DNA of 64,000 bases from sequence record JN673056; one strand, written 5' to 3'. The notes under the pieces were generated by a model that saw only the letters and a program-made list of their open reading frames with translations, ran no database searches and had not been told where the DNA came from. The position numbers and the translations under genes are program-made. Positions 7,977 through 46,479 of the stretch are shown here, piece by piece; positions within the stretch are counted from its first letter, which is position 1; each line of letters starts with the position of its first letter. This DNA comes from Escherichia phage PhaxI.

Positions 7977-8010
7977 AAAAAGCCGAGGCATTAACCTCGG
8001 CTTCTCCTTT
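7977..8010. terminator. bidirectional rho-independent terminator hairpin (GCCGAGG-CATTAA-CCTCGGC)
   Basis: 7-bp GC-rich stem flanked by A-run upstream and T-rich run downstream on plus strand; lies between HU gene end and helicase gene start. Confidence 0.5.
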
Positions 8011-8062
8011 TAGCCTTGCGCCGCTGCACTGCAGACATGCGCTGGGCCGACGCCTGGTGTGA

Positions 8063-8341
8063 TTACTGGCCGTTGGCAGCAGCTTTCAGACCTTCACCGA
8101 CTTTGAATTTAACTACATTTTTCGCTTCGATCTGGATCTGTTGTCCGTTCAGCGGGTTGCGGCCAGTGCGCGCTTCCTGATGTTTAACTTCGAACGCGCC
8201 GAAGCCTACGAATTGGACAGATTGGCCAGCCGCGACTGCAGTTTTCACGCCATTGATAAAAGATGCAACGATTTTCTCAGCTTCGCCTTTGGTCATACCC
8301 TGGGTTTGAGCGATGTGAGCGATAAAATCAGTACGGTTCAT
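8063..8341 (-). CDS. HU/IHF-family DNA-binding protein
   Basis: MNRTDFIAHIAQ..GMTKGEAEKIVASF..GFGAFEVKHQEARTGRNPLNGQQIQIEAKNVVKFKVG is a canonical HU fold sequence; start set to ATG 8339-8341 with GGAG SD (track start 8377 is upstream). Confidence 0.85.
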   Translation of the reverse strand: MNRTDFIAHIAQTQGMTKGEAEKIVASFINGVKTAVAAGQSVQFVGFGAFEVKHQEARTGRNPLNGQQIQIEAKNVVKFKVGEGLKAAANGQ

Positions 8342-8428
8342 TCGGATTACTCCAGTTGGTTGTTTACGATGTTTCACTACAAGAGGACTACAGCTTACCT
8401 AACAAATATTATTGAATAAAGCGTTTAT

Positions 8429-9217
8429 TTACCGGGCATTTAGCATGTTACTTGAGCCTGAACCATCAACAGTCAGAGTACATTTCCCGGTGTTTGGGCA
8501 AGATTGCAACACCATGTTATATTCGTGGTGTAAATATTCAGGTGTCAGAGATGTCGTCAGTTTCTGATTCGCCCTGGCTTCTTGATCTGGAATTTCAACG
8601 TTCTTTCTTGCTGTATCCAAACGTTTGTCGGCCAGGACATTATCGCGGATAGATTGCTCAATCGAAGGATCTGTCAGCGCCTTTTTCACCAACACACGTG
8701 TGATTGTGAACATGCCAGGCGCAGCAGTTTCCAATTGCTGCTGGGTGCGTTCCTTGATCATCTTTTCTAACTCAGCCCGTTGGGTGTGAATTGTCATAGA
8801 ATCCAAAGAGGAAACGGCGTCCATCGTTGAGGATGCTGCGGCGGTTTTAACCAGGTTGAATCCCACCGCTATCGTGCCGTCACCGAGTTCAGCGCTCTGA
8901 CCTGCAAATTTGGTATGGAACCAAGGAACCTTCGCGACGTTCGGTGTGTAATAAACGTCCACATCCAGATCTTCCAAGGTCAGGTTGTCTTTGGCCTTTG
9001 GCGTCATTTTGGTCAGACTCACAACGGCTTCTTTGGTCGTGTAAACATCCACGCTTGAAACAAAGCTGGTGTAGATCCCCGCTGTTACAGGGTTCATGTC
9101 TACTTCACCCCATTGGGTGTGAACGCCGACATTACCTTCATCGATAACGCCACCACAACCAGAAAGTAGACTTGCAGCCAGAACCATAATTGCACCAAAC
9201 ACCAATTTCTTGAACAT
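8429..9217 (-). CDS. SPFH (band-7/stomatin-prohibitin-like) domain lipoprotein
   Basis: Signal peptide plus lipobox MMFKKLVFGAIMVLAASLLSGC; SPFH-like N-terminal motif VIDEGNVGVHTQWGEV and later AKDNLTLEDLDVDVYYTP resembling the TKDN..v.vd..v.yr block; start overlaps stop of upstream membrane protein gene. Confidence 0.5.
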   Translation of the reverse strand: MFKKLVFGAIMVLAASLLSGCGGVIDEGNVGVHTQWGEVDMNPVTAGIYTSFVSSVDVYTTKEAVVSLTKMTPKAKDNLTLEDLDVDVYYTPNVAKVPWFHTKFAGQSAELGDGTIAVGFNLVKTAAASSTMDAVSSLDSMTIHTQRAELEKMIKERTQQQLETAAPGMFTITRVLVKKALTDPSIEQSIRDNVLADKRLDTARKNVEIPDQEARANQKLTTSLTPEYLHHEYNMVLQSCPNTGKCTLTVDGSGSSNMLNAR

Positions 9218-9435
9218 CAATGTACCCCTTCAAAAATGTAGATATATGCACCCAATGTGAGTGCGGTTATTGTAACCGAAGAAATCAGCAGCAGGAAAGT
9301 TACCCTCACCCGTTTACGCCAACGTTTACTTCGGTAGATTTTAGTCTCTTTCAAGTATTTGAAAAAGAAAAATAAAATGAATGTTGAAATTACGAATATG
9401 AACAGATAACGGATTAACCCGATCATATTTCCCAC
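9217..9435 (-). CDS. small two-helix membrane protein (72 aa)
   Basis: Two hydrophobic segments (LIRYLFIFVISTFILFFFF and FLLLISSVTITALTLGAYIYIF) separated by basic loop KRWRKRVR; translationally coupled to the SPFH lipoprotein gene. Confidence 0.45.
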   Translation of the reverse strand: MGNMIGLIRYLFIFVISTFILFFFFKYLKETKIYRSKRWRKRVRVTFLLLISSVTITALTLGAYIYIFEGVH

Positions 9436-9743
9436 CCTGTGCTACGCAGATGATCAAAATAATCGTTGAGTTCGTCAATATCTTCGATATCAACCCAACG
9501 ATCATCCAGACCCATATCATTTAGATCTTCTTCAGTCAGATCATGTTGGTATATTTGAACGCCGGAAGCATTACAATAATCCGGCTTGATGTTATTGTTA
9601 TACTGAAACAGGTCGTAATCAGCCAGAGTATTCTTCAGGCGCTGCGCTTCTTCAAATGTTGGAACCTCAACATGAAAAGCGATCCCAGGAACCTGGGGAA
9701 TATGCCAAACGCGAAATTTAAGTTCAAACGGTTTATTCGACAT
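9423..9743 (-). CDS. hypothetical acidic protein (106 aa)
   Basis: ORF in operon context; acidic C-terminus DDRWVDIEDIDELNDYFD. Confidence 0.4.
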   Translation of the reverse strand: MSNKPFELKFRVWHIPQVPGIAFHVEVPTFEEAQRLKNTLADYDLFQYNNNIKPDYCNASGVQIYQHDLTEEDLNDMGLDDRWVDIEDIDELNDYFDHLRSTGWEI

Positions 9744-10062
9744 GGGGTTCTCCCTGAGACAGTATGGTTTTCATCTGTTCACGCGTGATAATTGTTTCAA
9801 CAAGATTCTCGTCAATCATCATTTCGTTTAACAGTTCACAACCCAGCACGTGTGGTCGCGCCATATACGGCATCGTGTTGAGTTTTTCTTCTATGTCAAG
9901 AACGCGCTTGACAGTCAGACCCATAGAAGAAAAGGGAACAGGATAAAAGAATGAAATGATCTGATTATCCATCCCGTTTGAAAATCTTACCAACAATACA
10001 TCACACCATACGCCGGACATATTACACCTCCAGACGGTTACAATGAGAAAGCGCGTTATCAA
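9733..10062 (-). CDS. hypothetical protein
   Basis: ORF in operon context; true start may be an internal Met. Confidence 0.35.
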   Translation of the reverse strand: MITRFLIVTVWRCNMSGVWCDVLLVRFSNGMDNQIISFFYPVPFSSMGLTVKRVLDIEEKLNTMPYMARPHVLGCELLNEMMIDENLVETIITREQMKTILSQGEPHVE

Positions 10063-10690
10063 TCTGTTCCCGAGACAGATATTCCCAACGGGTTGCGAGA
10101 AATACGCGTCTAACAGCAGCAGTTGAGCACAGCGCGATTACGAGTTTCCTCTCCATCATGATACCGTTCATATGTGGTGAACGGGCTGTCCATACAACAT
10201 ACTGACCTAAATCGTCGTTGGCAGTCAGGCTAATGCGAAACTGATTACACAATTTGTCGATTAACGCATAATCATATGTGAACGTCCCTTCAGTTTTCCA
10301 GCTTGATTTCTTCACCTGAAGAGCTTCACCACGAGTTCTGAATTCTAACGTCACTCCATGAGTTTCATTGTCGAAATGAACAACTCTCTGAGTTTCATTT
10401 TTCAGAGTCCGGTTCATATTATGTACGAAGAAACGGGCGTCGATCTCCCTATTGCTCATGGAATTAAAATCGATCGGCCAAAAACGAGCGCGCATAATCG
10501 CGCCTTCTGGCAATACAATTAGTCCATTTTCACGGGAGACATAGCAAAGACGTTTAACTACAGGGTCAGGATGTTCCACACAATAAACGGAAATTCCAGT
10601 GGGAAGGATAGCGTGGGCGACAACACCAGATCTTTCAAAATATAAATTACCCTGGTCAGCCCCGATGATAATACGGCTCTTGTTGTTCAT
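10022..10690 (-). CDS. hypothetical protein (222 aa)
   Basis: Long ORF in minus-strand operon, no motif recognised. Confidence 0.45.
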   Translation of the reverse strand: MNNKSRIIIGADQGNLYFERSGVVAHAILPTGISVYCVEHPDPVVKRLCYVSRENGLIVLPEGAIMRARFWPIDFNSMSNREIDARFFVHNMNRTLKNETQRVVHFDNETHGVTLEFRTRGEALQVKKSSWKTEGTFTYDYALIDKLCNQFRISLTANDDLGQYVVWTARSPHMNGIMMERKLVIALCSTAAVRRVFLATRWEYLSREQIDNALSHCNRLEV

Positions 10691-13441: not shown

Positions 13442-13510
13442 GATATAGTTCCTTCATTTCAAATGGGCGGGGCAAAGATACCCCGCCGTGGGTTTATAGG
13501 GTAACAAGTG
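13425..13510 (-). repeat. terminator-RBS-start cassette, copy A (hairpin GGCGGGG-N8-CCCCGCC then CATTTGAAATGAAGGAA..ATGACAGATCAA)
   Basis: About 75 percent identical over about 70 bp to 13985-14070, including the first four codons (MTDQ) of the downstream gene. Confidence 0.6.
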
Positions 13511-14000
13511 ATACGGTAAAAACCATCGTCCCATCTGTTGTCATTTTTCTTGAAACTGGGAAGACGCGAGGCTGACAGAATATCCATTCTTTCTCCATGG
13601 ACGCCAAGTCCAGCATATCCATTTCTGATTCATCGCCTTTGTTCACAAATTTTTCTAGAGAACCAAAGACATTAAGCCCCTCTGGGAGTCCGTTTCGATG
13701 TTTATAACAAATGCGGGCAACAGCTTTGGTTCCATACGATTTAGAAAATTGTTTGGCCACATGCTTCAGTTCGCTGAAACTAAGACAAGAATCCCATGTC
13801 TGAAACATGTCTCCTCGTTCAAACATCATCTCCAAACGCGCAACGTCCTCTTTAGGCAACCCGCGATAAAGTGTGGTCATCTGCGGTTCGCGTAATTCTT
13901 GCACCAGACCACGGATGGCAGGGGAAACAGTGCCAGGGCGCATGATGTGGGACTTATCATGGACGAGGTAAAATAAATCTTGAATTTGTTGATCGGTCAT
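13494..14000 (-). CDS. hypothetical protein (168 aa) starting MTDQ
   Basis: Preceded by copy B of the hairpin-RBS cassette; no motif recognised. Confidence 0.45.
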   Translation of the reverse strand: MTDQQIQDLFYLVHDKSHIMRPGTVSPAIRGLVQELREPQMTTLYRGLPKEDVARLEMMFERGDMFQTWDSCLSFSELKHVAKQFSKSYGTKAVARICYKHRNGLPEGLNVFGSLEKFVNKGDESEMDMLDLASMEKEWIFCQPRVFPVSRKMTTDGTMVFTVSLVTL

Positions 14001-14350: not shown

Positions 14351-14412
14351 TTGCCTTATAGAAGTAAACCCCTAAAAGTAAAAATCCCCCAACGTTTGTT
14401 GGGGATCTTCAG

Positions 14413-14745
14413 TTACTTGCGCAGGGCAACCACGTATTCGGCAAGTTCACCCATGGTCGGGTCGTCGCCTTTACCGCCCAGCCAGCCATCAGAGATCTCG
14501 ACATTGAACTCTTCTTCTAGTTCCATGACGATTTCGATGGCATCAAGATCGTCGCCGCCGAGGTCTTTCTTGGTGCGGAGGCCAGCCAGTTTATCCAGGG
14601 CGTCATTCATAATCACTTCCGCGTCGACGATGCCTTTGATGCTGCTCTTGTCTTCGTCACTGACTTCCAGGTTCAGATTGTCAGTGGCGTACTGAGCCAG
14701 GTGACGCATTACTTCAACATAAGTTGGTTTGTTTGACATAAGCAT
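14413..14745 (-). CDS. acyl-carrier-protein-like protein lacking the phosphopantetheine-attachment serine
   Basis: KDLGGDDLDAIEIVMELEEEFNVEISD aligns with E. coli ACP [27 protein letters not shown], but codons GAC GAT (DD) replace the DS of the DSL motif; checked on the DNA. Confidence 0.6.
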   Translation of the reverse strand: MLMSNKPTYVEVMRHLAQYATDNLNLEVSDEDKSSIKGIVDAEVIMNDALDKLAGLRTKKDLGGDDLDAIEIVMELEEEFNVEISDGWLGGKGDDPTMGELAEYVVALRK

Positions 14746-14758
14746 ATCTCAAAATGAA

Positions 14759-14774
14759 GGCGGGTTTCCCCGCC
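14759..14774 (-). terminator. GC hairpin (GGCGGG-TTTC-CCCGCC) between vWA gene stop and ACP-like gene start
   Basis: Perfect 6-bp GC stem followed on minus strand by TTCATTTTG; 13 nt upstream of the ACP-like ATG. Confidence 0.4.
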
Positions 14775-14782
14775 AGTTGAAT

Positions 14783-17035
14783 TTAGATTTTGACTTCTTT
14801 TTCAGCCAGTTCGGCAGTGACGGTGTATTTCACCCCATCAACGTCCACATCCATAGTGGATTCTTCCAAATCCAGGTCGGTAAACCAACCATGGCCTGCA
14901 ACAATCCCATAAACTACCTTGGACAGCGTTTTGTTCAGAGATCGAACTTCGTTGATAGCTGCTTTTGCTGCATCACCAATCCAACTTTCGATCAGCTTTT
15001 TCTGAGTCTCTTCCGGTACGCTGGTGATCATCGGCGATTTAACAAACGCATTGTATTCGGCCAGGGCATTAGCGATCAGCTGATCAGCGACATTCAGTTT
15101 TTTACCGTCCGTCTGTTTTTTGATAACAGACGCGATGCTCGGCAGTGAAGATGCGCCTTTGATTTTCACATTCAATTCACGACTCATATAGACATCGGTT
15201 GATTCTACAGAAGAAGTCTTCGGTGAAAATCCATAGTCGCGAATGCCGTTTGCTGACAGGAAATCAGCCGCTTCTTTGCCATATTTTGAAGCCAGACCCG
15301 TAGCGTTGCCTTTTCCAACCAGTTCATCACGGTAGAATTTCAGAACTTTCTGTTTTGCCTTCAATGCTTCACGGCGCACATTGTCTGCAAAGAATTCAGC
15401 AGCACTGATATTCTTTGTCATGGCGCGGTTAACCATTGGGACACTTTCCAGATTTACAATGAAGACTTCCGGCCCACCAAACACATGAACACCCATGGCA
15501 GTCAAATCCTGTGCCACCTTAGCCCGAACAATCGGAGAATCTGCAGTGATAGGCATTGTTTTCAGGTTGATGATACCATCCTTGACAATGGTGTAATTGC
15601 GATAACGCCATGTATCCAGCTCTTCAGGAAGTTCATATTTCTTCTGTACAAACTCGGGCACAACAACCGTCCCGTGTTGAACTGTCTGCACACTGATGTT
15701 AGGACGTTCTGAATTATAGACCAAATTGCTGATCGGGACAATCCCTTTATCATCTGCTGGATTGAATTCCGGCGTCCAATCTTCGTGCTCGGCCAGTTTG
15801 AGCGCCAGGGCTTTACGCTCTTCTTTAGAAGTCGCATTCGCAATCTCTTCGGCCAACTTGTCTTCGGTGTCGTCAACTTTTTGTATAGTACCGCGCCCAA
15901 TGCTCTTGTAAGAGAATAGCGGATGCTTGGTGACGATAGAGACATCTGCTTCAGCCAAATACGTCAGAACATCAACAATGGTGGTGGCGTCTTCAGCCGG
16001 AACCATATTATAATCGATGCCATCAACTCCTCGCAGAGATTCGTCTACGATAGCCTGAGTCAGATCGACTTTGATGTTGGAGTAATCCTGCTTGGTGAAA
16101 CAGTTGCTGTATTGTTTGATGAAGCGGACGTCACCCGTTTTCTTCAGCGCAGCCCAAACCAAATCTGCGTCCATGGTATACACGCCGTAAAATGCCAGCA
16201 CGTATGCCGCTTGGATGTCTGCCAGATTATCCAGCTGGTCGATCATGTTGGGGTTTACAACCCACAGCTGAGAAACGCTTTCAGGGATGCTGACGTGGCC
16301 AATAGGGTGCTCTTCATCAGGATGCACAGCTAAAACAGTCGCCACGCCATTTTCAACATAAATGGCATGGGTGTAAACCAGGGGAACATCGACCACCACT
16401 TTCGGTGAAGAAGTTTTTAGCACGTTTTCCAATTCGGTCTGATATTCATTCTGGCCTTCGGCGAATACGTGGGTCGCACCAGAACGTTCTGCCATTAGCG
16501 CCAGCAGTTCGCGATTACAATACCAACCGTATTCGATGAAGGTAATGTTATCAAACGCTTTGGGCAGTACTTCAGCGGCATCCAGGATTTCATTAGAGCG
16601 CCAGCAGTTGTCATATCCGTCGGTCATGAACGCCAGGTTATTGACATAACCAGGTTTGTTCAGGCTCATCGCGGTTTCAGCAGCCAACTTCAGAGGTTCT
16701 ACAAATCCCGTACAACCTGACGGTTGCAGGAAGCGGTCAATCAGTTTATTGATTTCACTGAGATCGGTCGCGCTATTGATCTGACGGCCAGCGAATACCG
16801 TACCGAAATCACCACGGGATGAAAAGTAAAGAATGCTGACGGTATCTTCTGGTTTAACCAGAGACGGGAGATTTTCCTTCAGATGCTTACGGACTTCTGG
16901 AAGTGAAAGATACATGGACCGGGAGATATCCACAACGATTACATGGTTAGACGGTGCGACGGTCGCAACCGCATTCTTAAATGTTAATGATTCAATCATC
17001 GTTATTACCTTCTTTGGTGGTTTGAGCGGCTTCAC
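14783..17035 (-). CDS. von Willebrand factor A (vWA) domain protein (750 aa)
   Basis: MIDAS motif DxSxS (VVVDISRSMY) in N-terminal domain followed by a long C-terminal region of unknown fold. Confidence 0.5.
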   Translation of the reverse strand: MKPLKPPKKVITMIESLTFKNAVATVAPSNHVIVVDISRSMYLSLPEVRKHLKENLPSLVKPEDTVSILYFSSRGDFGTVFAGRQINSATDLSEINKLIDRFLQPSGCTGFVEPLKLAAETAMSLNKPGYVNNLAFMTDGYDNCWRSNEILDAAEVLPKAFDNITFIEYGWYCNRELLALMAERSGATHVFAEGQNEYQTELENVLKTSSPKVVVDVPLVYTHAIYVENGVATVLAVHPDEEHPIGHVSIPESVSQLWVVNPNMIDQLDNLADIQAAYVLAFYGVYTMDADLVWAALKKTGDVRFIKQYSNCFTKQDYSNIKVDLTQAIVDESLRGVDGIDYNMVPAEDATTIVDVLTYLAEADVSIVTKHPLFSYKSIGRGTIQKVDDTEDKLAEEIANATSKEERKALALKLAEHEDWTPEFNPADDKGIVPISNLVYNSERPNISVQTVQHGTVVVPEFVQKKYELPEELDTWRYRNYTIVKDGIINLKTMPITADSPIVRAKVAQDLTAMGVHVFGGPEVFIVNLESVPMVNRAMTKNISAAEFFADNVRREALKAKQKVLKFYRDELVGKGNATGLASKYGKEAADFLSANGIRDYGFSPKTSSVESTDVYMSRELNVKIKGASSLPSIASVIKKQTDGKKLNVADQLIANALAEYNAFVKSPMITSVPEETQKKLIESWIGDAAKAAINEVRSLNKTLSKVVYGIVAGHGWFTDLDLEESTMDVDVDGVKYTVTAELAEKEVKI

Positions 17036-17266
17036 CTTCCGGCTTTGCCAGCATGTGTTCTATGAATTCGCGATTAGTTTCAATCTGTTGGATTAAAACT
17101 TCGCTGGGTTTAAACTGTGAGTCAAGAGAGTCAACTCTTGAACGCAAAAATGGTTTGGGCAAAGTAATTTCCCTCGCTTTACAATTGGGCCATTATACCT
17201 TGGCTTGTTAATTGAAACGCCCAGCAATTTGCCGGACGTTATTGATTTTGAAAGACTTTTGAAGAA

Positions 17267-18246: not shown

Positions 18247-18645
18247 CTATAGTTGGTTACACACAGATATTACTTTACGGCACGTGTCGATATCGAACAA
18301 GCCGATATGGCAATCGCGCTTCTTGATCCCCAGATTATGAGCCAGCCAGTTGTAAGCATCACTCCTGCTCCTCTGCCCACTTTTCCAGATAGGGTCAAAC
18401 GACCTATGAGCTTCCTGCTTAGCAGCACGGAGAGCGGCATTCGCCATCCTTCCCATAGGGGTCTTTCCATCACCATGTTTATGGCAACCGACTCGGGCGT
18501 CACATGGAGTGCACACCCAGAACTTCAGATTGCGGAGTTCAGGGCGGTGGGGGTATACAGCATCACCACTGACGTATTTGGCAGGAAGGCCGCAATAATC
18601 ACAGATGACAGGTTTCATATTCTTTGTCCAAAAGAAACCCCGCAC
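18247..18645 (-). CDS. cysteine-rich zinc-finger-like protein
   Basis: CDYC...CTPCDARVGCHKH cysteine/histidine clusters. Confidence 0.4.
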   Translation of the reverse strand: MRGFFWTKNMKPVICDYCGLPAKYVSGDAVYPHRPELRNLKFWVCTPCDARVGCHKHGDGKTPMGRMANAALRAAKQEAHRSFDPIWKSGQRSRSDAYNWLAHNLGIKKRDCHIGLFDIDTCRKVISVCNQL

Positions 18646-19086: not shown

Positions 19087-21105
19087 TTAGAAAATGACTT
19101 TTACAGTACGGTTAAACGCGCCGGACACTTTGACGAACACGTGGTTGCGTTGCGTCGTCGAGAATCCCAGACCGGACAGTTGGTTTTCATTCGGCTGGAC
19201 TTTCATTTTACTACCCAACATTTCAAAAACCTTACGATGTTTATCCAGTTCCGGCTTCAGATATTCGTTGTAGAAACCACGAGTACCTTCAGGATTAGCA
19301 CAGCCTTCCAGGATGAAGAACACGTGCTTGTTGCCTGTCTGCTCGCCATCCCAATGGTTTGGTGAGTTCAGGACCAGCTGTACTTTCTGGAAGGTCGCAG
19401 TCTTGATACCCCAAACTTCTTTAGACTTATCAACATTAGCCAGTTCGGACTTAATGCCAACAACTTGTTTGTCTTTAACAGTCAAGATGACTGCGGTGAT
19501 ACGTCCCTGATCTTTCAGGCCAGGATGGCTGAAACGATGCGTTGCGCCTTTGTATTCTACTTCGACTTCAAACCCTTCGTCGATTTTTTCACGTTGATTG
19601 TAGTTGTGGATTTCGAAACGGTATTCACCATCGCGCAGCTTGCTTTCATCTGTAAAGATGATATTTTCCACCGGAGCGCGGTTTGGATCAATACCATCCA
19701 TACCGTTCATATCGATATCCAGATGGGCACCTGTCATAGAGCGGCGATCGCGGAAGTAAACGTGCTCCATGTTGTTGAACATATGCAGATCGAGGTCGTC
19801 GTTATTGTGCCACGCCAAGGAAACGCGCAGATACCCGTCAACTTTACCGCCAGCAGCCTTTACACGTTCTTTAATGGAATCGGTCACTTCACCGTTGTAA
19901 GACCAGGAGAACCCGTTGTTCCACTTGAACAGGTTAGGCGCATCTGGGTTCGCCGGAGCAACCAGGGACATCAGGTTGCTAGTATGAGAATTCTCTACAA
20001 GCACTTCCATTGAATGCGCTTTTGGCAGAACATTGCTCAGGAAATCATCAACGCTGATCTCTTCAACTTTTTCCAGGGACTTGGTCGGAGTTTTCACTTC
20101 GGCGGCCAGCTGTGCAAACGGATCCATCGCTTTCTGAGCAGCCAGATCTGCGAACAGAACGTTGTTGATTGTCAGATCATCGTAAACCGCATAACGACGC
20201 GCCAGTGAGTCTTCCAAACCCAGAGCAATAACTTCTTTCTGAGCGTTTTCGATCATGGATTTTGAAACCAGCGCTGTCGGACGTTTGTAGTTCGCCGGAG
20301 CAACTTTGGATTCAAACGATTTAACAGCCTTTTCCAGTTCCACGCCTTCACTGATATCTGTCAGCAGAGTGCCGATAACTGTGTTGCGGATGCCGTGTGG
20401 AACATGATTGTTTGAACGGTATCCAGTATGCCATGCCCAAAGAGAACGGGCTGATTCGGGGACTTGTTCATATGCCTTTTTGGTTTCAACAAATCCCTTC
20501 ACTGCTGCTTTGTGTTCTGCGCCGCGATACAGAGAATTCTGGTCAATCAGTTCCAGAACGATTTCAGCTGATTCCAGAGTAATTTCACGCAGACCGCGTT
20601 CAAACAATTCAATAGCCTGGCGGATTTCACCTTTTTTCGAAGCGATTGCGTCCGGACGCAGAACATAGCTACCAAGTAATTGGGTATGGAAATGATTGTA
20701 AGTACGGATTTTGCCATCTTCACCAGATTCGTGATTGTGAGACAGGCCGACTTTGGCAGAATCGTTAAAATAAACATCGACGATTGCGTGTTGTTTGACA
20801 TACGCGGAAAGAGCCGCAGCCACCACGTCATATTCATTACCCAGATCAATGTTGTCCCAGATAGAAATTACGTTCAGTTCTGAATCGATGGTGACAACAC
20901 CGCCGATGTTACGGATGAATTGTTTACAGCAGGTGCAATCGTGTTCAGTACGTTCGCGGTACAGCGGGTTAGTACCAGCAGGGAAAGATGCCAGATACAG
21001 ATCCCAAAGAGCATCTTTATCGATATTGGTCATGAACAGACCAGTTGCGGACATCGCCAGCACGTTGTTATTAACTGCCGTTGCGAAGGGTTTGAATTCT
21101 GCCAT
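19087..21105 (-). CDS. large hypothetical protein (672 aa)
   Basis: Long uninterrupted ORF; no Walker or polymerase motifs found by eye. Confidence 0.5.
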   Translation of the reverse strand: MAEFKPFATAVNNNVLAMSATGLFMTNIDKDALWDLYLASFPAGTNPLYRERTEHDCTCCKQFIRNIGGVVTIDSELNVISIWDNIDLGNEYDVVAAALSAYVKQHAIVDVYFNDSAKVGLSHNHESGEDGKIRTYNHFHTQLLGSYVLRPDAIASKKGEIRQAIELFERGLREITLESAEIVLELIDQNSLYRGAEHKAAVKGFVETKKAYEQVPESARSLWAWHTGYRSNNHVPHGIRNTVIGTLLTDISEGVELEKAVKSFESKVAPANYKRPTALVSKSMIENAQKEVIALGLEDSLARRYAVYDDLTINNVLFADLAAQKAMDPFAQLAAEVKTPTKSLEKVEEISVDDFLSNVLPKAHSMEVLVENSHTSNLMSLVAPANPDAPNLFKWNNGFSWSYNGEVTDSIKERVKAAGGKVDGYLRVSLAWHNNDDLDLHMFNNMEHVYFRDRRSMTGAHLDIDMNGMDGIDPNRAPVENIIFTDESKLRDGEYRFEIHNYNQREKIDEGFEVEVEYKGATHRFSHPGLKDQGRITAVILTVKDKQVVGIKSELANVDKSKEVWGIKTATFQKVQLVLNSPNHWDGEQTGNKHVFFILEGCANPEGTRGFYNEYLKPELDKHRKVFEMLGSKMKVQPNENQLSGLGFSTTQRNHVFVKVSGAFNRTVKVIF

Positions 21106-21201: not shown

Positions 21202-21609
21202 TTAAACGGGAATCATGTTTACTCGAATACTTCTGAACTGTTTCCCGTCATAACTGGTGTAACCAACAACCGTAACTGATCTTGTTCCCTTTGGATAACC
21301 CTTTGGAGTACTCACAACGCGCACAGGGCGCTTGCTTTCTTTATCGTATTTCGAAATCAATTTCAAAAGATGTTTATCGATCTGGCTTAAACTATCACCA
21401 TACACGGTATATTGATATTGCTCGCAATTACCCAACAAAATGATAAATTTATAAATTTTGTCGACCAAAGATCGACATTTTGGATCATCATAATGATGCC
21501 GACAGACTTGACATTCATATTTCCCAGTATTCATGTTGAACAATTTTGTCGCCCGACTTGAACACGCTGGGCATACTTTCCATGAACGATGATGTTTTAC
21601 GGGTTTCAT
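21202..21609 (-). CDS. zinc-ribbon protein (135 aa)
   Basis: CPAC...CQVC pairs near N-terminus. Confidence 0.4.
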   Translation of the reverse strand: MKPVKHHRSWKVCPACSSRATKLFNMNTGKYECQVCRHHYDDPKCRSLVDKIYKFIILLGNCEQYQYTVYGDSLSQIDKHLLKLISKYDKESKRPVRVVSTPKGYPKGTRSVTVVGYTSYDGKQFRSIRVNMIPV

Positions 21610-22832
21610 TTTTTCATCTTCTCTAACAGATTAATAGAACGAACGGGAGTCTTCTGTAATGGCTGATTAACTTCACCACCATTATACCCCACCTTTCCTC
21701 GAGGTTTCTCCCCGCGCATCACCGCCTCAACGCAGCGGGTATATTTCTGAAGTTCACAGAACATGTTCTCCAACTGCATAACATTCATGCAACGGTCTTC
21801 CGGTTCTTCTGCCGACCAAAATTCATTACGTTTATACCCGTACTGAGCGAACAATTGATCTTGATGATCACGAACCCAGAATATGCATTCTTCATGCGTC
21901 ATGCCGTCCTTGTCCAAAAATAACAGATCGATACCAGCACGGCAACCTGGACCAGCGATAGTGAAGTGGTTTTCACTGAATGGATATTCATCGATGTATG
22001 TAAAATCAACCCAAATCTGGTATGCCAAGAATGGTCCAAGCCCCTCAATGTCGTCATACATCGCCTGGTAAACAGAGTCGGGACGGCTAAATTCCCTGAG
22101 GCGATCAAAGTAATGAGGGTGTTTGTTGACGAATGCCTTCAAAGAGCGGATGACTCGCATCGGCATGTATGGTTCCCAGCCTTCTATTTTGTATTCACCA
22201 GGATTATCTTCGGCCAGCTTCTTGGCAACCTTGTAATCCATTTCATCTATAACACCGCCAACCCGATGGACTTTTACCTTCATGCCGCCAAAGCGTTGCT
22301 CCTTGTGGTTGACAACTAGTTCAGGGAAAGCCAGGCATTGTTTCAGACCGCCTGTATTAAACGCATTGGTGAAAACTTTGCCACCTTTAGATTCGAATTC
22401 CTGAAGAACATCTCGACACCATTCAAGATTTATGTTTCCGAATTCTTCGATCGTCCATGGACCACCCAAAGCCTGTATAGGTTCCCACATGTTGTACATG
22501 CGGAACAATACACAGTTGAACATTTTGTCAGATAGCGTGAGATCCTGATCGAGGATGATATTATTGATCAAATTTCGAGACTGCCTATCGTGCTCTCTCC
22601 GGACGTTACAGAACTTGACCTGCCGTAGTATGGGATTATCCGTCCAAGGAGCAGGAAGACGCTGGACGTCCTTTCTCACGTGGATCTTATAACGCTCGCT
22701 CATCCATTCGTATGCGAGTTGTTTATGGAATGGGCTTAACATGGGATGTGCAGATTTAATTTTAACTTCCCGAACACCGCAATAAGGAATGTCACACGGT
22801 TTATCTTTCATGGTATCCTCTCTAGAATACAA
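21606..22832 (-). CDS. hypothetical protein (408 aa)
   Basis: Long ORF overlapping downstream gene start; no motif recognised. Confidence 0.45.
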   Translation of the reverse strand: MYSREDTMKDKPCDIPYCGVREVKIKSAHPMLSPFHKQLAYEWMSERYKIHVRKDVQRLPAPWTDNPILRQVKFCNVRREHDRQSRNLINNIILDQDLTLSDKMFNCVLFRMYNMWEPIQALGGPWTIEEFGNINLEWCRDVLQEFESKGGKVFTNAFNTGGLKQCLAFPELVVNHKEQRFGGMKVKVHRVGGVIDEMDYKVAKKLAEDNPGEYKIEGWEPYMPMRVIRSLKAFVNKHPHYFDRLREFSRPDSVYQAMYDDIEGLGPFLAYQIWVDFTYIDEYPFSENHFTIAGPGCRAGIDLLFLDKDGMTHEECIFWVRDHQDQLFAQYGYKRNEFWSAEEPEDRCMNVMQLENMFCELQKYTRCVEAVMRGEKPRGKVGYNGGEVNQPLQKTPVRSINLLEKMKK

Positions 22833-32018: not shown

Positions 32019-32056
32019 TGTAACATGGTATAACTCCTCATGGGTGGCAAATTTAT

Positions 32057-44268: not shown

Positions 44269-46479
44269 TCAATTCTTAAACCACTCATCCATGGTCATCC
44301 CTGACATTTCGTTGAAAACTTGAATACCCCCGAAACCAGGCAAATGCTCAGTTTCGGATGGGGTGTCTCCAACGACTAAACCGCCAAATGGGAATACCTG
44401 CTGGGATTCAGTTGAAGACATTCGGTTTCTCATGTCCTGAGAAATACTTGTAGATGTCAAGTCACTGAACCATTCTTGTTTTACCGCCCATGAATATAAG
44501 ACCAACGGCATGACACAGTCATCGTGACAACCGTCATCGGCTTCATACCGAGCGCCTTTGAACACAAATGTACTGAGTTCATCTATCGTGTCCTGGTCTT
44601 CTATCACCAACATTTCTTTCTCAATGAGCGCTTTCAGGTTAGCACAACCGATAGATCGGACTTTTCTGTTGGTATTGATACCAGGTTCCGGTTTACGTCC
44701 ACCAATCCGTTTCCCCGTCCCTTTGTTATCTGTTGATGTGAATATGATTTCTGGATATTCTATCTCTTGATAAAGAATTGTAATAACCTGACCGCCGACG
44801 TCGTTGTTTGTTTCAACAAGGACAGGACATTCCCCGTATTCGGTGCACATATCAGCTATCGTGTATGCATACATCATAGGAGGTATCGTATTATTCCTGT
44901 ACTTGGCTGCTATGACATGCGGATATTCAGTTATATCCAGAATTGTTAAGACGGAATAATCTCCTTCCACCCCCTTCCCAGTGTCCGCAATCCCAAAGTA
45001 GAGACGTTGTGGGTCGTATTCCTTATAAATCTTGGTGAATTCATTAGGTTCCCGATACAACTTGGACGTCATTTTATCTAAGCATTTGGCCGGAATCAAT
45101 GAACCCACGGAACCACGGAACTTAATGCCAAATTCTTGATCGAAACGAGCATCCCCCAGACGGGCACGTTGTTTGGTTTCCCAATCTGGATCTTTGGTAT
45201 ATGCCGGAACCTTATACCATGGGACTTCAGTTAGGTGGAAGTCGTTGTATGGTGGATGGCGTGGATCTGCTTTGGTGACAATATCATAGAACAACCCTCG
45301 CTGGCCTTTCGGAGTACTTGTCAAAATACAGCGTGATGTATCGGCAGATGCAATGGCTGGGAAAGTTGATTCCCAAAATTCAAAGTCGTTTTCGATAAAC
45401 GCGACTTCGTCAACATACAGGAGCGATCGACGACCACGGATGGAGTTCCGAAGACTCGTGGCATAAGCGTATATCTTAGAACCATTCTCAAACTCTATCA
45501 GGGTAGAACCAAACTTCTCACAACCCTGCTGAAGGAAGAATGGAAGGTCTTGGTATGCCTTTCTGATACGGTCAAGAATTTCTATCGCTTGTTTCTCTTT
45601 GTTTGCCAGTACTGCGATTTCCTTATCAGAATGGAACATCGCGTACCAAAGAAGAAACGCCGCCACCACGGTCGTGTTATGACTGAGAAAGCCATTCGTG
45701 TAATAACGTTGATCACTAGATTTGACCTGCAGATCGTACATATGGTGATATTCACCAGTCTGCCAAATCTCACGGATTTCTTCTGGACCTTCGGTCGTCA
45801 TGATGTATGACCCAGCATTCAGGTCTTTGGCAAATATCTCCTTCATGTCCGGAGTGAAGAACATATGTTCATCGGCCACGTTAATTCGCCTTCCGGTAAC
45901 GGTGACAATAACGAATTCCGCATATTTCTTCGTCTTATGCGCTGCGATAACCGGAACCCAGCCACTATCGGATTGTACAAAGTAACGTTTGCCGAAGCGG
46001 CTGTCCACGAACTTGTCATGGTTGCCAATGGTATTCAGCGGCACAGCGTGGTTGACGTCCTCGAAGCGGCTGTGAAGCTCCCCTATAGTCAGGAGCAACT
46101 CCTCTTGGCTGAGAGTATCGTAAACTGTGACAAGCGTGTCGCCTTTTACACATTTTCCGGACTGACGAGCCTGGACGACCGCATTAAATCGATAGTCCTG
46201 AAAGTCGTGGAACAACTGCTTCTGATAATCATGCATATCGAAAAGGATAAAGCCCTTATCGATCGTGGTTATCTTGTAATAGTTGGCGGCGAAGTAGTGT
46301 GCATCCATAGAACATTCAACGAATTCGTCTTCTTGTTCATCTGTCAGCATTAACTCGACTCGAGGAGCACGCACAGAAAGTTTGCGCATGAACGTTTGGT
46401 CCATACGCAATTTTACATCGTCTATTTTGAACCCCGTTTTAATTGGGGCATATTCTATATCACGCTTCTGATACGCCAT
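44269..46479 (-). CDS. terminase large subunit (T4 gp17-like) interrupted by a mini-intein
   Basis: C-terminal nuclease/ATPase blocks (LLYVDEVAFIENDFEFW, ILTSTPKGQRGLFYDI) match remembered T4 gp17; Walker A ARQSGK is separated from its TTVVAAFL continuation by a 159-aa insert. Confidence 0.9.
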   Translation of the reverse strand: MAYQKRDIEYAPIKTGFKIDDVKLRMDQTFMRKLSVRAPRVELMLTDEQEDEFVECSMDAHYFAANYYKITTIDKGFILFDMHDYQKQLFHDFQDYRFNAVVQARQSGKCVKGDTLVTVYDTLSQEELLLTIGELHSRFEDVNHAVPLNTIGNHDKFVDSRFGKRYFVQSDSGWVPVIAAHKTKKYAEFVIVTVTGRRINVADEHMFFTPDMKEIFAKDLNAGSYIMTTEGPEEIREIWQTGEYHHMYDLQVKSSDQRYYTNGFLSHNTTVVAAFLLWYAMFHSDKEIAVLANKEKQAIEILDRIRKAYQDLPFFLQQGCEKFGSTLIEFENGSKIYAYATSLRNSIRGRRSLLYVDEVAFIENDFEFWESTFPAIASADTSRCILTSTPKGQRGLFYDIVTKADPRHPPYNDFHLTEVPWYKVPAYTKDPDWETKQRARLGDARFDQEFGIKFRGSVGSLIPAKCLDKMTSKLYREPNEFTKIYKEYDPQRLYFGIADTGKGVEGDYSVLTILDITEYPHVIAAKYRNNTIPPMMYAYTIADMCTEYGECPVLVETNNDVGGQVITILYQEIEYPEIIFTSTDNKGTGKRIGGRKPEPGINTNRKVRSIGCANLKALIEKEMLVIEDQDTIDELSTFVFKGARYEADDGCHDDCVMPLVLYSWAVKQEWFSDLTSTSISQDMRNRMSSTESQQVFPFGGLVVGDTPSETEHLPGFGGIQVFNEMSGMTMDEWFKN
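45676..46152 (-). mobile_element. mini-intein (Hint domain only, 159 aa) inserted in the terminase Walker A P-loop
   Basis: Insert begins Cys (CVKGDTLV, block A), contains VYDLQV...NGFLSHN ending in His-Asn, and is followed by Thr (+1 nucleophile) that completes QSGK-T of the P-loop; no homing endonuclease domain. Confidence 0.75.

Follow-up and report, generated by a model that had tools for sequence, protein, structure and literature searches.

A von Willebrand A domain protein family in Escherichia phage PhaxI and the pseudo-acyl carrier protein gene downstream of it

The 64,000-nucleotide (nt) stretch of Escherichia phage PhaxI DNA analysed here (sequence record JN673056; hereafter the window) carries on its minus strand a gene for a large protein with an N-terminal von Willebrand A (vWA) domain, followed directly by a gene for a small protein that resembles acyl carrier protein (ACP). 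We find that the vWA gene represents a known, catalogued but uncharacterised family, and that an ACP-like partner is clearly not needed for this family to function. The explanation that we favour, albeit tentatively, is that the vWA protein is a stand-alone, widely conserved adaptor built around its metal ion-dependent adhesion site (MIDAS) and acting late, with the ACP-like gene being a lineage add-on and no obligate partner. An earlier note on this DNA had instead suggested that the two genes may form an undescribed two-component accessory system, an arrangement that is unsupported as a property of the vWA family and possible inside the Ackermannviridae.

A widespread and previously catalogued family

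The vWA protein matches PHROG 2426 over profile positions 2 to 736 of 736 (E=0, 1261 bits) and is thus a full-length member of this family, whose named representatives are RB43 ORF119c, LIMEstone1 ORF108 and AR9 g068. The family carries the label 'VWA domain-containing protein' (PHROG 2426 / VOG3102), and PHROG 2426 is listed under 'unknown function'. Searches with tblastn recovered full-length relatives from 502 phage records, including all major Ackermannviridae genera. Identity to the PhaxI protein is 83% in LIMEstone1, 48% in RB43 and about the same (~48%) across the RB43-, KP15- and Cronobacter-type Straboviridae, 35% in Pseudomonas phage pf16, 26% in Bacillus phages PBS1/AR9 and 23% in Rhizobium Kleczkowskaviridae. 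An exhaustive profile search (E<=1e-30) yielded 995 clusters, formed at 50% identity, and the best 150 of these 995 all have lengths of 678-823 amino acids (aa). The genes beside the vWA gene differ among all lineages examined, and a BLAST search for a neighbour conserved across lineages found none.

Neither gene of the pair is new to the databases. Both are already in GenBank, as 'putative vWa containing protein' (the annotation of LIMEstone1 ORF108 since 2012) and 'acyl carrier protein', and the vWA match of RB43 ORF119c was tabulated in 2006 (PMC1524935). The placement of the vWA gene outside the canonical T4 gene set is nevertheless correct, since phage T4 itself lacks it.

One further relative, 32% identical, was observed at positions 8001-10169 of a 294-kb metagenome scaffold from ENA. 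Its surroundings look cellular, with ankyrin-repeat proteins, MBOAT, a T2SSE ATPase and a ClpB-like AAA+ protein, and this context implies that the vWA family is not strictly limited to recognisable phage genomes.

Start codon and domain architecture of the vWA protein

The earlier note described a product of 750 aa. A 750-codon minus-strand open reading frame (ORF) does run from a GTG at 17035 to the stop codon at 14783, but translation almost certainly begins at the ATG at 16999, which yields a protein of 738 aa (coding sequence 14783..16999 (-); 81.6 kDa, isoelectric point (pI) 5.0). Several observations agree on this start and are our reason for choosing it: the PHROG 2426 profile alignment begins at residue 13 of the 750-aa ORF, a 2.2-kb coding sequence is annotated in GenBank for Mutine, barely, Menlow and LIMEstone1, the N-terminus MI..L.FKN is common to all 39 aligned diverse homologues, and there is an 8-nt overlap between the ATG and the stop of a 56-aa ORF upstream. 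The sequence GAAGG stands just before this ATG. The 12-codon extension from the GTG (17000..17035 (-)) is probably untranslated, as the profile alignment begins after it and annotated homologues begin at the ATG. Residue numbers below follow the 738-aa protein unless the 750-aa ORF is named.

Structure prediction assigns to the N-terminal third, with high confidence, a vWA domain with an intact MIDAS, a beta-sandwich and a helical bundle. The vWA domain, predicted to be Rossmann-like, occupies residues ~1-195 (16415..16999 (-)) and matches Pfam VWA_3 above threshold over residues 32-186 of the 750-aa ORF (29.4 bits, cutoff 27; E=9.6e-7), which bears out the vWA assignment given in the earlier note. 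The DxSxS motif of the MIDAS reads D24-I-S26-R-S28 (16916..16930 (-)) and, with its conservation among homologues, identifies the site, which T97 and D127 complete. At each of D24, S26, S28, T97 and D127, all aligned homologues that have a residue there are identical (38/38 or 39/39), and this invariance suggests that metal-dependent ligand binding by the vWA protein is under selection. The beta-sandwich (~196-249) and helical bundle (~250-320), encoded by 16040..16414 (-), follow in the predicted structure in the same order as in ArnB and the Sec23-24 core, so that together with the vWA domain they form a module like those of ArnB, 4fx5 and the Sec23-24 core. The solved structures nearest to this N-terminal part (residues 1-320) are 4fx5, inter-alpha-trypsin-inhibitor heavy chains (ITIH), ArnB and Sec23/24. 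ArnB and ITIH also appear as PDB profile matches, and a single-sequence PDB search with the vWA protein gave no match.

The remainder of the protein, residues 321-738 (14786..16039 (-)), is predicted to be a conserved, family-specific alpha/beta module whose fold has no known relative. It contains the invariant residues R432, N434, S436, N468, D474, G475, G585, G590, F591, P593, W705 and F706, the first five forming an invariant polar cluster. The AlphaFold model of the full-length protein, made from the 39-sequence alignment, has a mean predicted local distance difference test (pLDDT) score of 86.6 with no segment below 50, and a model of residues 248-738 reaches a pLDDT of 89.4 and a predicted template modelling score of 0.81. 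The earlier note had called for annotation of the C-terminal 550 aa; despite the confident model, residues 321-738 matched nothing in PDB, Pfam or a viral structure library, and Pfam searches across 39 family members detected the vWA domain and nothing in the C-terminal part. Foldseek comparison of the C-terminal model with the viral structure library returned only uncharacterised phage proteins, most of them evident family members, and one protein of Bacillus phage SP-15. NCBIfam gave a sub-threshold vWA match only, and none of the PADLOC defence models matched the vWA protein.

These searches also bear on whether the vWA protein might serve a MoxR/CobS-type AAA+ ATPase as its cofactor, in the manner of a chelatase or chaperone subunit like CobT, BchD or NorD. 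The earlier note had raised a cobalt-chelatase-type subunit with a separate AAA partner as the annotation that would speak against its proposal, and MoxR-vWA pairs are known from jumbo phages (PMC7824862). However, the 39 members match generic vWA Pfam families only, with no CobT or chelatase match in any of them, and the BchD and NorD matches score well below those to ArnB, ITIH and 4fx5. Our Pfam scan of the window covered 39 ORFs, which are most of those longer than 200 aa, and the sole AAA+ protein among them is the gp44 clamp loader. No MoxR/CobS gene was found among these scanned ORFs or beside homologues in the other phages examined, the remaining ~93 kb of the genome being unscanned. 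Homologous contexts likewise have no AAA+ neighbour, save the unrelated ClpB-like gene 6 kb away in the one cellular-looking contig. With no family signature and no such ATPase among the scanned ORFs, we reject this identity as extremely improbable.

An ACP-like protein with an acidic residue in place of the modified serine

The ACP-like gene (14413..14739 (-)) encodes 108 aa from a conserved ATG (MSNKPTY), the start used by annotations and by the profile of its family, PHROG 4154; an alternative ATG lies at 14745. The protein matches PF00550 (E=3e-7, 31 bits, cutoff 20.8), whereas the NCBIfam ACP models all fall far under their cut-offs (36 bits versus 71). At the position of the phosphopantetheine-attachment serine there is an Asp codon (14548..14550 (-)), the protein reading DLGGDDLDA where ACPs have DSL, and the label pseudo-ACP is therefore apt. 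This replacement is a property of the entire family: the equivalent residue is acidic in 50/50 ACP-like members (Asp in 5, Glu in 45), while Ser is retained in all 34 motif-bearing cellular ACPs that the same search recovered. From these residues, the ACP-like protein is predicted to be unable to carry acyl groups in the canonical manner.

The protein is like AcpP in its helix II-III region (DLGxDxLDxIExVMxLEEEF), which lies above the PF00550 threshold, and unlike AcpP in having Asp/Glu for the phosphopantetheine Ser and an N-terminal extension of ~30 aa; the family is also highly acidic (pI 4.2). It consists of ~50 protein clusters of 104-113 aa, after which matches drop sharply to ordinary cellular ACPs. 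In tblastn searches the gene was found in 272 phage records, of which 269 are full-length matches in Ackermannviridae-type genomes (two bearing Pseudomonas or Enterococcus names) and three are short partial matches in Listeria phages.

Co-occurrence of the two genes is one-way and limited to one lineage

In Kuttervirus, Taipeivirus and Limestonevirus the ACP-like gene lies directly downstream of the vWA gene, and at least 207 of 224 records have the pair in the same order and orientation. The arrangement extends to Erwinia phage vB_EamM-Bue1 (MG973030.1; Nezavisimistyvirus), where a profile hidden Markov model (HMM) located an unannotated 99-aa ACP-like ORF with the motif MDELD (locus L008:6310-6609 (+)) in an annotation gap directly after the vWA gene, with identities of only 50% for vWA and 24% for ACP.

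Elsewhere the vWA gene stands alone. When the ACP profile HMM was run against six-frame translations of 19 loci, matches were confined to the Ackermannviridae; no ACP-like ORF occurs within 4-8 kb of the vWA gene in RB43, pf16, PBS1, Rhizobium phage TM30 or five metagenomic contexts, nor near the vWA gene of AR9. Even within the Ackermannviridae, Aeromonas phage phiA8-29 has an unrelated 262-aa gene in the ACP position and no ACP-like ORF nearby. The vWA gene thus occurs without an ACP-like gene in many phages, the finding that the earlier note had itself named as counting against a two-component system, and the totals (502 records for vWA against 272 for the ACP-like gene) do not sustain that proposal.

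The two genes have also diverged to different extents. Although the vWA proteins of the window and of Mutine, both Kuttervirus, are 99.2% identical, the corresponding ACP-like proteins are 64.8% identical, and the allele in the window is closer to that of LIMEstone1 (77.8%) than to that of Mutine. This mismatch indicates recombinational replacement of the ACP gene alone, which would have taken place independently of the vWA gene.

It is unlikely, in our judgement, that the pair is a dedicated accessory system within the Ackermannviridae, in which, for example, the Asp/Glu at the N-terminus of ACP helix II completes the MIDAS. Such a system would account for the adjacency across three genera and its persistence in Bue1 despite the divergence of both products, for the acidic residue in every ACP-like member, for co-transcription that the spacing nearly forces (see below) and for the ACP-like gene never being seen apart from the vWA gene. 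However, the vWA gene is present without any ACP-like gene in ~230 phage records and roughly 1000 protein clusters, phiA8-29 has a different gene at the same site, and the ACP alleles appear to have been swapped with no corresponding change in vWA. Moreover, Ackermannviridae genomes are collinear, so that conserved adjacency is weak evidence of a functional link, and synteny inside one such family does not count as independent evidence. A lineage-specific role for the ACP-like gene, as a client or modulator, is still conceivable.

The intergenic hairpin and expression of the ACP-like gene

Between the two genes, in a gap of 37-43 nt, is a terminator-like GC hairpin with a 6-bp stem and a 4-nt loop (14759..14774 (-)). 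It reads GGCGGG-GAAA-CCCGCC (14774..14759), is followed by TTCATTTTGA, and has a local folding energy of -19 kcal/mol (z=-3.0). The earlier note had placed such a hairpin 13 nt before the ACP-like start, which is accurate for the first ATG (14745); the distance to the conserved ATG (14739) is 19 nt. Conservation of the hairpin in Mutine, barely, Menlow and LIMEstone1 extends it to three further genera. In Menlow one G-C pair has become C-G, a compensatory change (GCCGGG...CCCGGC versus GGCGGG...CCCGCC), and the loop also differs; the GenBank records of Menlow and LIMEstone1 annotate a factor-independent terminator at this site. As a terminator it has an all-GC stem and one covariation in its favour, but it has a short stem of 6 bp and an interrupted U-tract tail, TTCATTTT. 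A second, stronger terminator-like hairpin, with an 8-bp stem followed by ATTTTT, lies after the ACP-like gene (14386..14405 (-)) and is an annotated terminator in Mutine and LIMEstone1.

Because the 13-19 nt between the hairpin and the ACP start leave no room for a promoter, co-transcription of the two genes, as proposed in the earlier note, seems nearly forced, and ACP expression would need read-through. Partial termination at the hairpin may then reasonably be inferred from the arrangement of these signals.

A possible late-acting MIDAS adaptor

In the explanation that we tentatively prefer, the vWA protein would be a Mg2+/MIDAS-dependent, protein-binding adaptor, with an acidic side chain of a partner (Asp/Glu or a phosphorylated residue) completing the coordination of the MIDAS cation. 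The C-terminal module would supply a family-specific activity or a second binding surface, and the protein would probably act late, either in assembly or by associating with the virion in few copies. The ACP-like gene would be an Ackermannviridae-specific addition downstream on the shared transcript, reached by read-through of a leaky terminator-like hairpin that would lower the ratio of ACP to vWA transcript or stabilise the vWA 3' end. That the acidic pseudo-ACP serves as one MIDAS ligand in the Ackermannviridae is speculative.

The vWA protein probably has a late role, as judged from expression of the AR9 homologue and from detection of the protein in LIMEstone1 particles. AR9 g068 has a mapped primary late promoter (PMC5312081, Tables S3 and S4), and its expression rises like that of virion genes, at 0.96, 105.6 and 431.5 fragments per kilobase per million mapped reads (FPKM) at 5, 20 and 40 min (PMC5312081). 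Virion mass spectrometry of LIMEstone1 detected the vWA protein with 6 peptides and 11.4% coverage (PMC3296691). Several points weigh against this explanation. The AR9 homologue is only ~26% identical, and its timing may not transfer. The LIMEstone1 particle list includes the non-structural contaminants DNA ligase, clamp loader and PhoH (PMC3296691), and in mass spectrometry of Sajous1 virions the vWA and ACP proteins were each represented by just one peptide (PMC10892097). No T4-type late promoter (TATAAATA) precedes the vWA gene in the window, although this motif is uninformative because it is rarer than chance would predict, with its sole exact match in 64 kb at 32054; a TATAAT box is present upstream of the 56-aa ORF. 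Finally, the C-terminal module could be an enzyme instead of a binding surface. A literature search turned up nothing relevant on Kuttervirus transcriptomics.

The same evidence could be read as marking a true virion component, whether structural or ejected, such as an adhesin or internal protein present in few copies whose MIDAS binds a ligand on the host surface or in the periplasm. LIMEstone1 annotates its homologue as a 'confirmed structural protein' on 6 peptides, and late transcription in AR9 would fit this role. We nonetheless consider it improbable. The single Sajous1 peptide is listed among non-structural proteins (PMC10892097), the vWA gene lies outside the structural module, and the AR9 annotators gave g068 no virion-protein label. 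In addition, word searches of the main text found mention of neither the vWA nor the ACP-like protein in the proteome papers on phiD3, PD10.3/PD23.1 and CBA120 or in a 2024 Ackermannviridae review.

A more elaborate scenario gives the pseudo-ACP of the Ackermannviridae the leading part, as a decoy of host holo-ACP. Its Asp/Glu would mimic phosphorylated Ser36 and dock in the vWA MIDAS. Late in infection, this phage-specific complex would sequester the host enzymes that bind ACP, or redirect them; candidate targets would be the enzymes of fatty-acid or lipid A synthesis, SpoT and MukB. We regard this scenario, including its targets, as quite doubtful. If it were true, the vWA family at large would represent a new class of phage adaptors built on the MIDAS and bearing a C-terminal effector of novel fold.

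Genome setting and neighbouring genes

The window is a segment of a Kuttervirus (Ackermannviridae) genome, and the 2.9 kb around the vWA gene are 95-97% identical to other genomes of that genus, with Salmonella phages SS3/SS9 and PhiSH19 and Escherichia phages FEC14 and CBA120 among the close relatives. Almost all genes of the window are encoded by the minus strand. Among them are replication genes of T4 type, including those for a clamp loader (gp44) and a UvsW-like helicase, as well as the structural genes for gp23, portal, sheath, terminase and tailspikes. The vWA gene is surrounded by replication and small accessory genes, with the structural module elsewhere.

Immediately upstream of the vWA gene is the 56-aa ORF with a TTG start (16992..17162 (-); PHROG 8656). 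It is homologous to just the C-terminal 50 residues of the 180-aa LIMEstone1 ORF109 and for this reason looks like a truncated remnant, or a minimal domain kept in Kuttervirus and Taipeivirus. Farther upstream are genes for an N4 gp49/Sf6 gp66-family protein (PF13876; 17267-17992 (-)) and a DUF3268 zinc-finger protein (18247-18645 (-)), both conserved across the Ackermannviridae, and then a gene for a conserved 672-aa protein (19087-21105 (-); PHROG 1735, labelled unknown function) that had no match in Pfam, NCBIfam or PADLOC. This last gene lies between the vWA gene and one for a 5-hydroxymethyldeoxyuridine (5-hmdU) DNA kinase (5-HMUDK; PF18723, E 6e-85; 21606..22832 (-)), a signature enzyme of thymidine hypermodification situated 4.6 kb upstream of the vWA gene.

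The proximity of this kinase could suggest that the vWA protein belongs to the pathway of 5-hmdU-derived thymidine hypermodification. The DNA of the Ackermannviridae is reported to be hypermodified (PMC5889632), and the remote structural match noted above is to a protein of SP-15, itself a hypermodified phage. However, the vWA protein has close homologues in RB43/KP15-like T4 phages, pf16, Rhizobium phages and the dU-DNA phage PBS1, and the 4-5 kb flanks examined in those phages hold no hypermodification genes. Several unrelated genes also separate the vWA gene from the kinase. We reject the link on the phyletic distribution of the vWA gene and consider it very improbable.

Two other observations concern genes farther away. 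A 168-aa ORF at 13494-14000 (-) matches PHROG 832, 'RNA polymerase ADP-ribosylase' (E 9e-16), over C-terminal positions 1270-1425 of 1480 only. The large terminase subunit (736 aa; 44269-46479 (-)) has, before Terminase_6N, a match to an intein-splicing domain at residues 125-228 that is below the Pfam cut-off, which suggests that the terminase gene may carry an intein insertion.

Discussion

The chief value of this analysis is clarification, since both genes were previously annotated and no new system has been demonstrated. The role of the pseudo-ACP is narrowed to that of a lineage-specific add-on, and for the vWA protein there is now a hypothesis ready for mutagenesis, in which an ArnB/Sec23-like MIDAS adaptor is fused to a confidently folded, unmatched module of 420 residues. 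PHROG 2426 is among the larger conserved uncharacterised protein families of the T4-superfamily phages (~1000 clusters at 50% identity), and therapeutic and biocontrol phages that infect Salmonella, E. coli O157, Klebsiella and Dickeya carry it.

Comparison with known systems places the PhaxI protein within PHROG 2426, from which it shows no difference and to which it belongs. Its closest structural counterparts, ArnB of Sulfolobus acidocaldarius (PDB 8s05, 5a8j) and 4fx5, have the vWA/beta-sandwich/helical arrangement in common with the phage protein but only 12-16% sequence identity to it. ArnB, a protein of 380 aa, forms a phosphorylation-dependent complex with the FHA/zinc-ribbon protein ArnA; among the 39 scanned window ORFs, Pfam matched no FHA protein and no second vWA protein, small ORFs and the rest of the genome being unscanned. 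The Sec23/Sec24 COPII core, which is eukaryotic and has a zinc finger and a gelsolin domain, and the ITIH proteins, which are eukaryotic and secreted, resemble the phage protein in fold only, with no functional parallel and no further sequence relationship. The phage protein differs from ArnB by its extra 420-residue module, which ArnB does not have.

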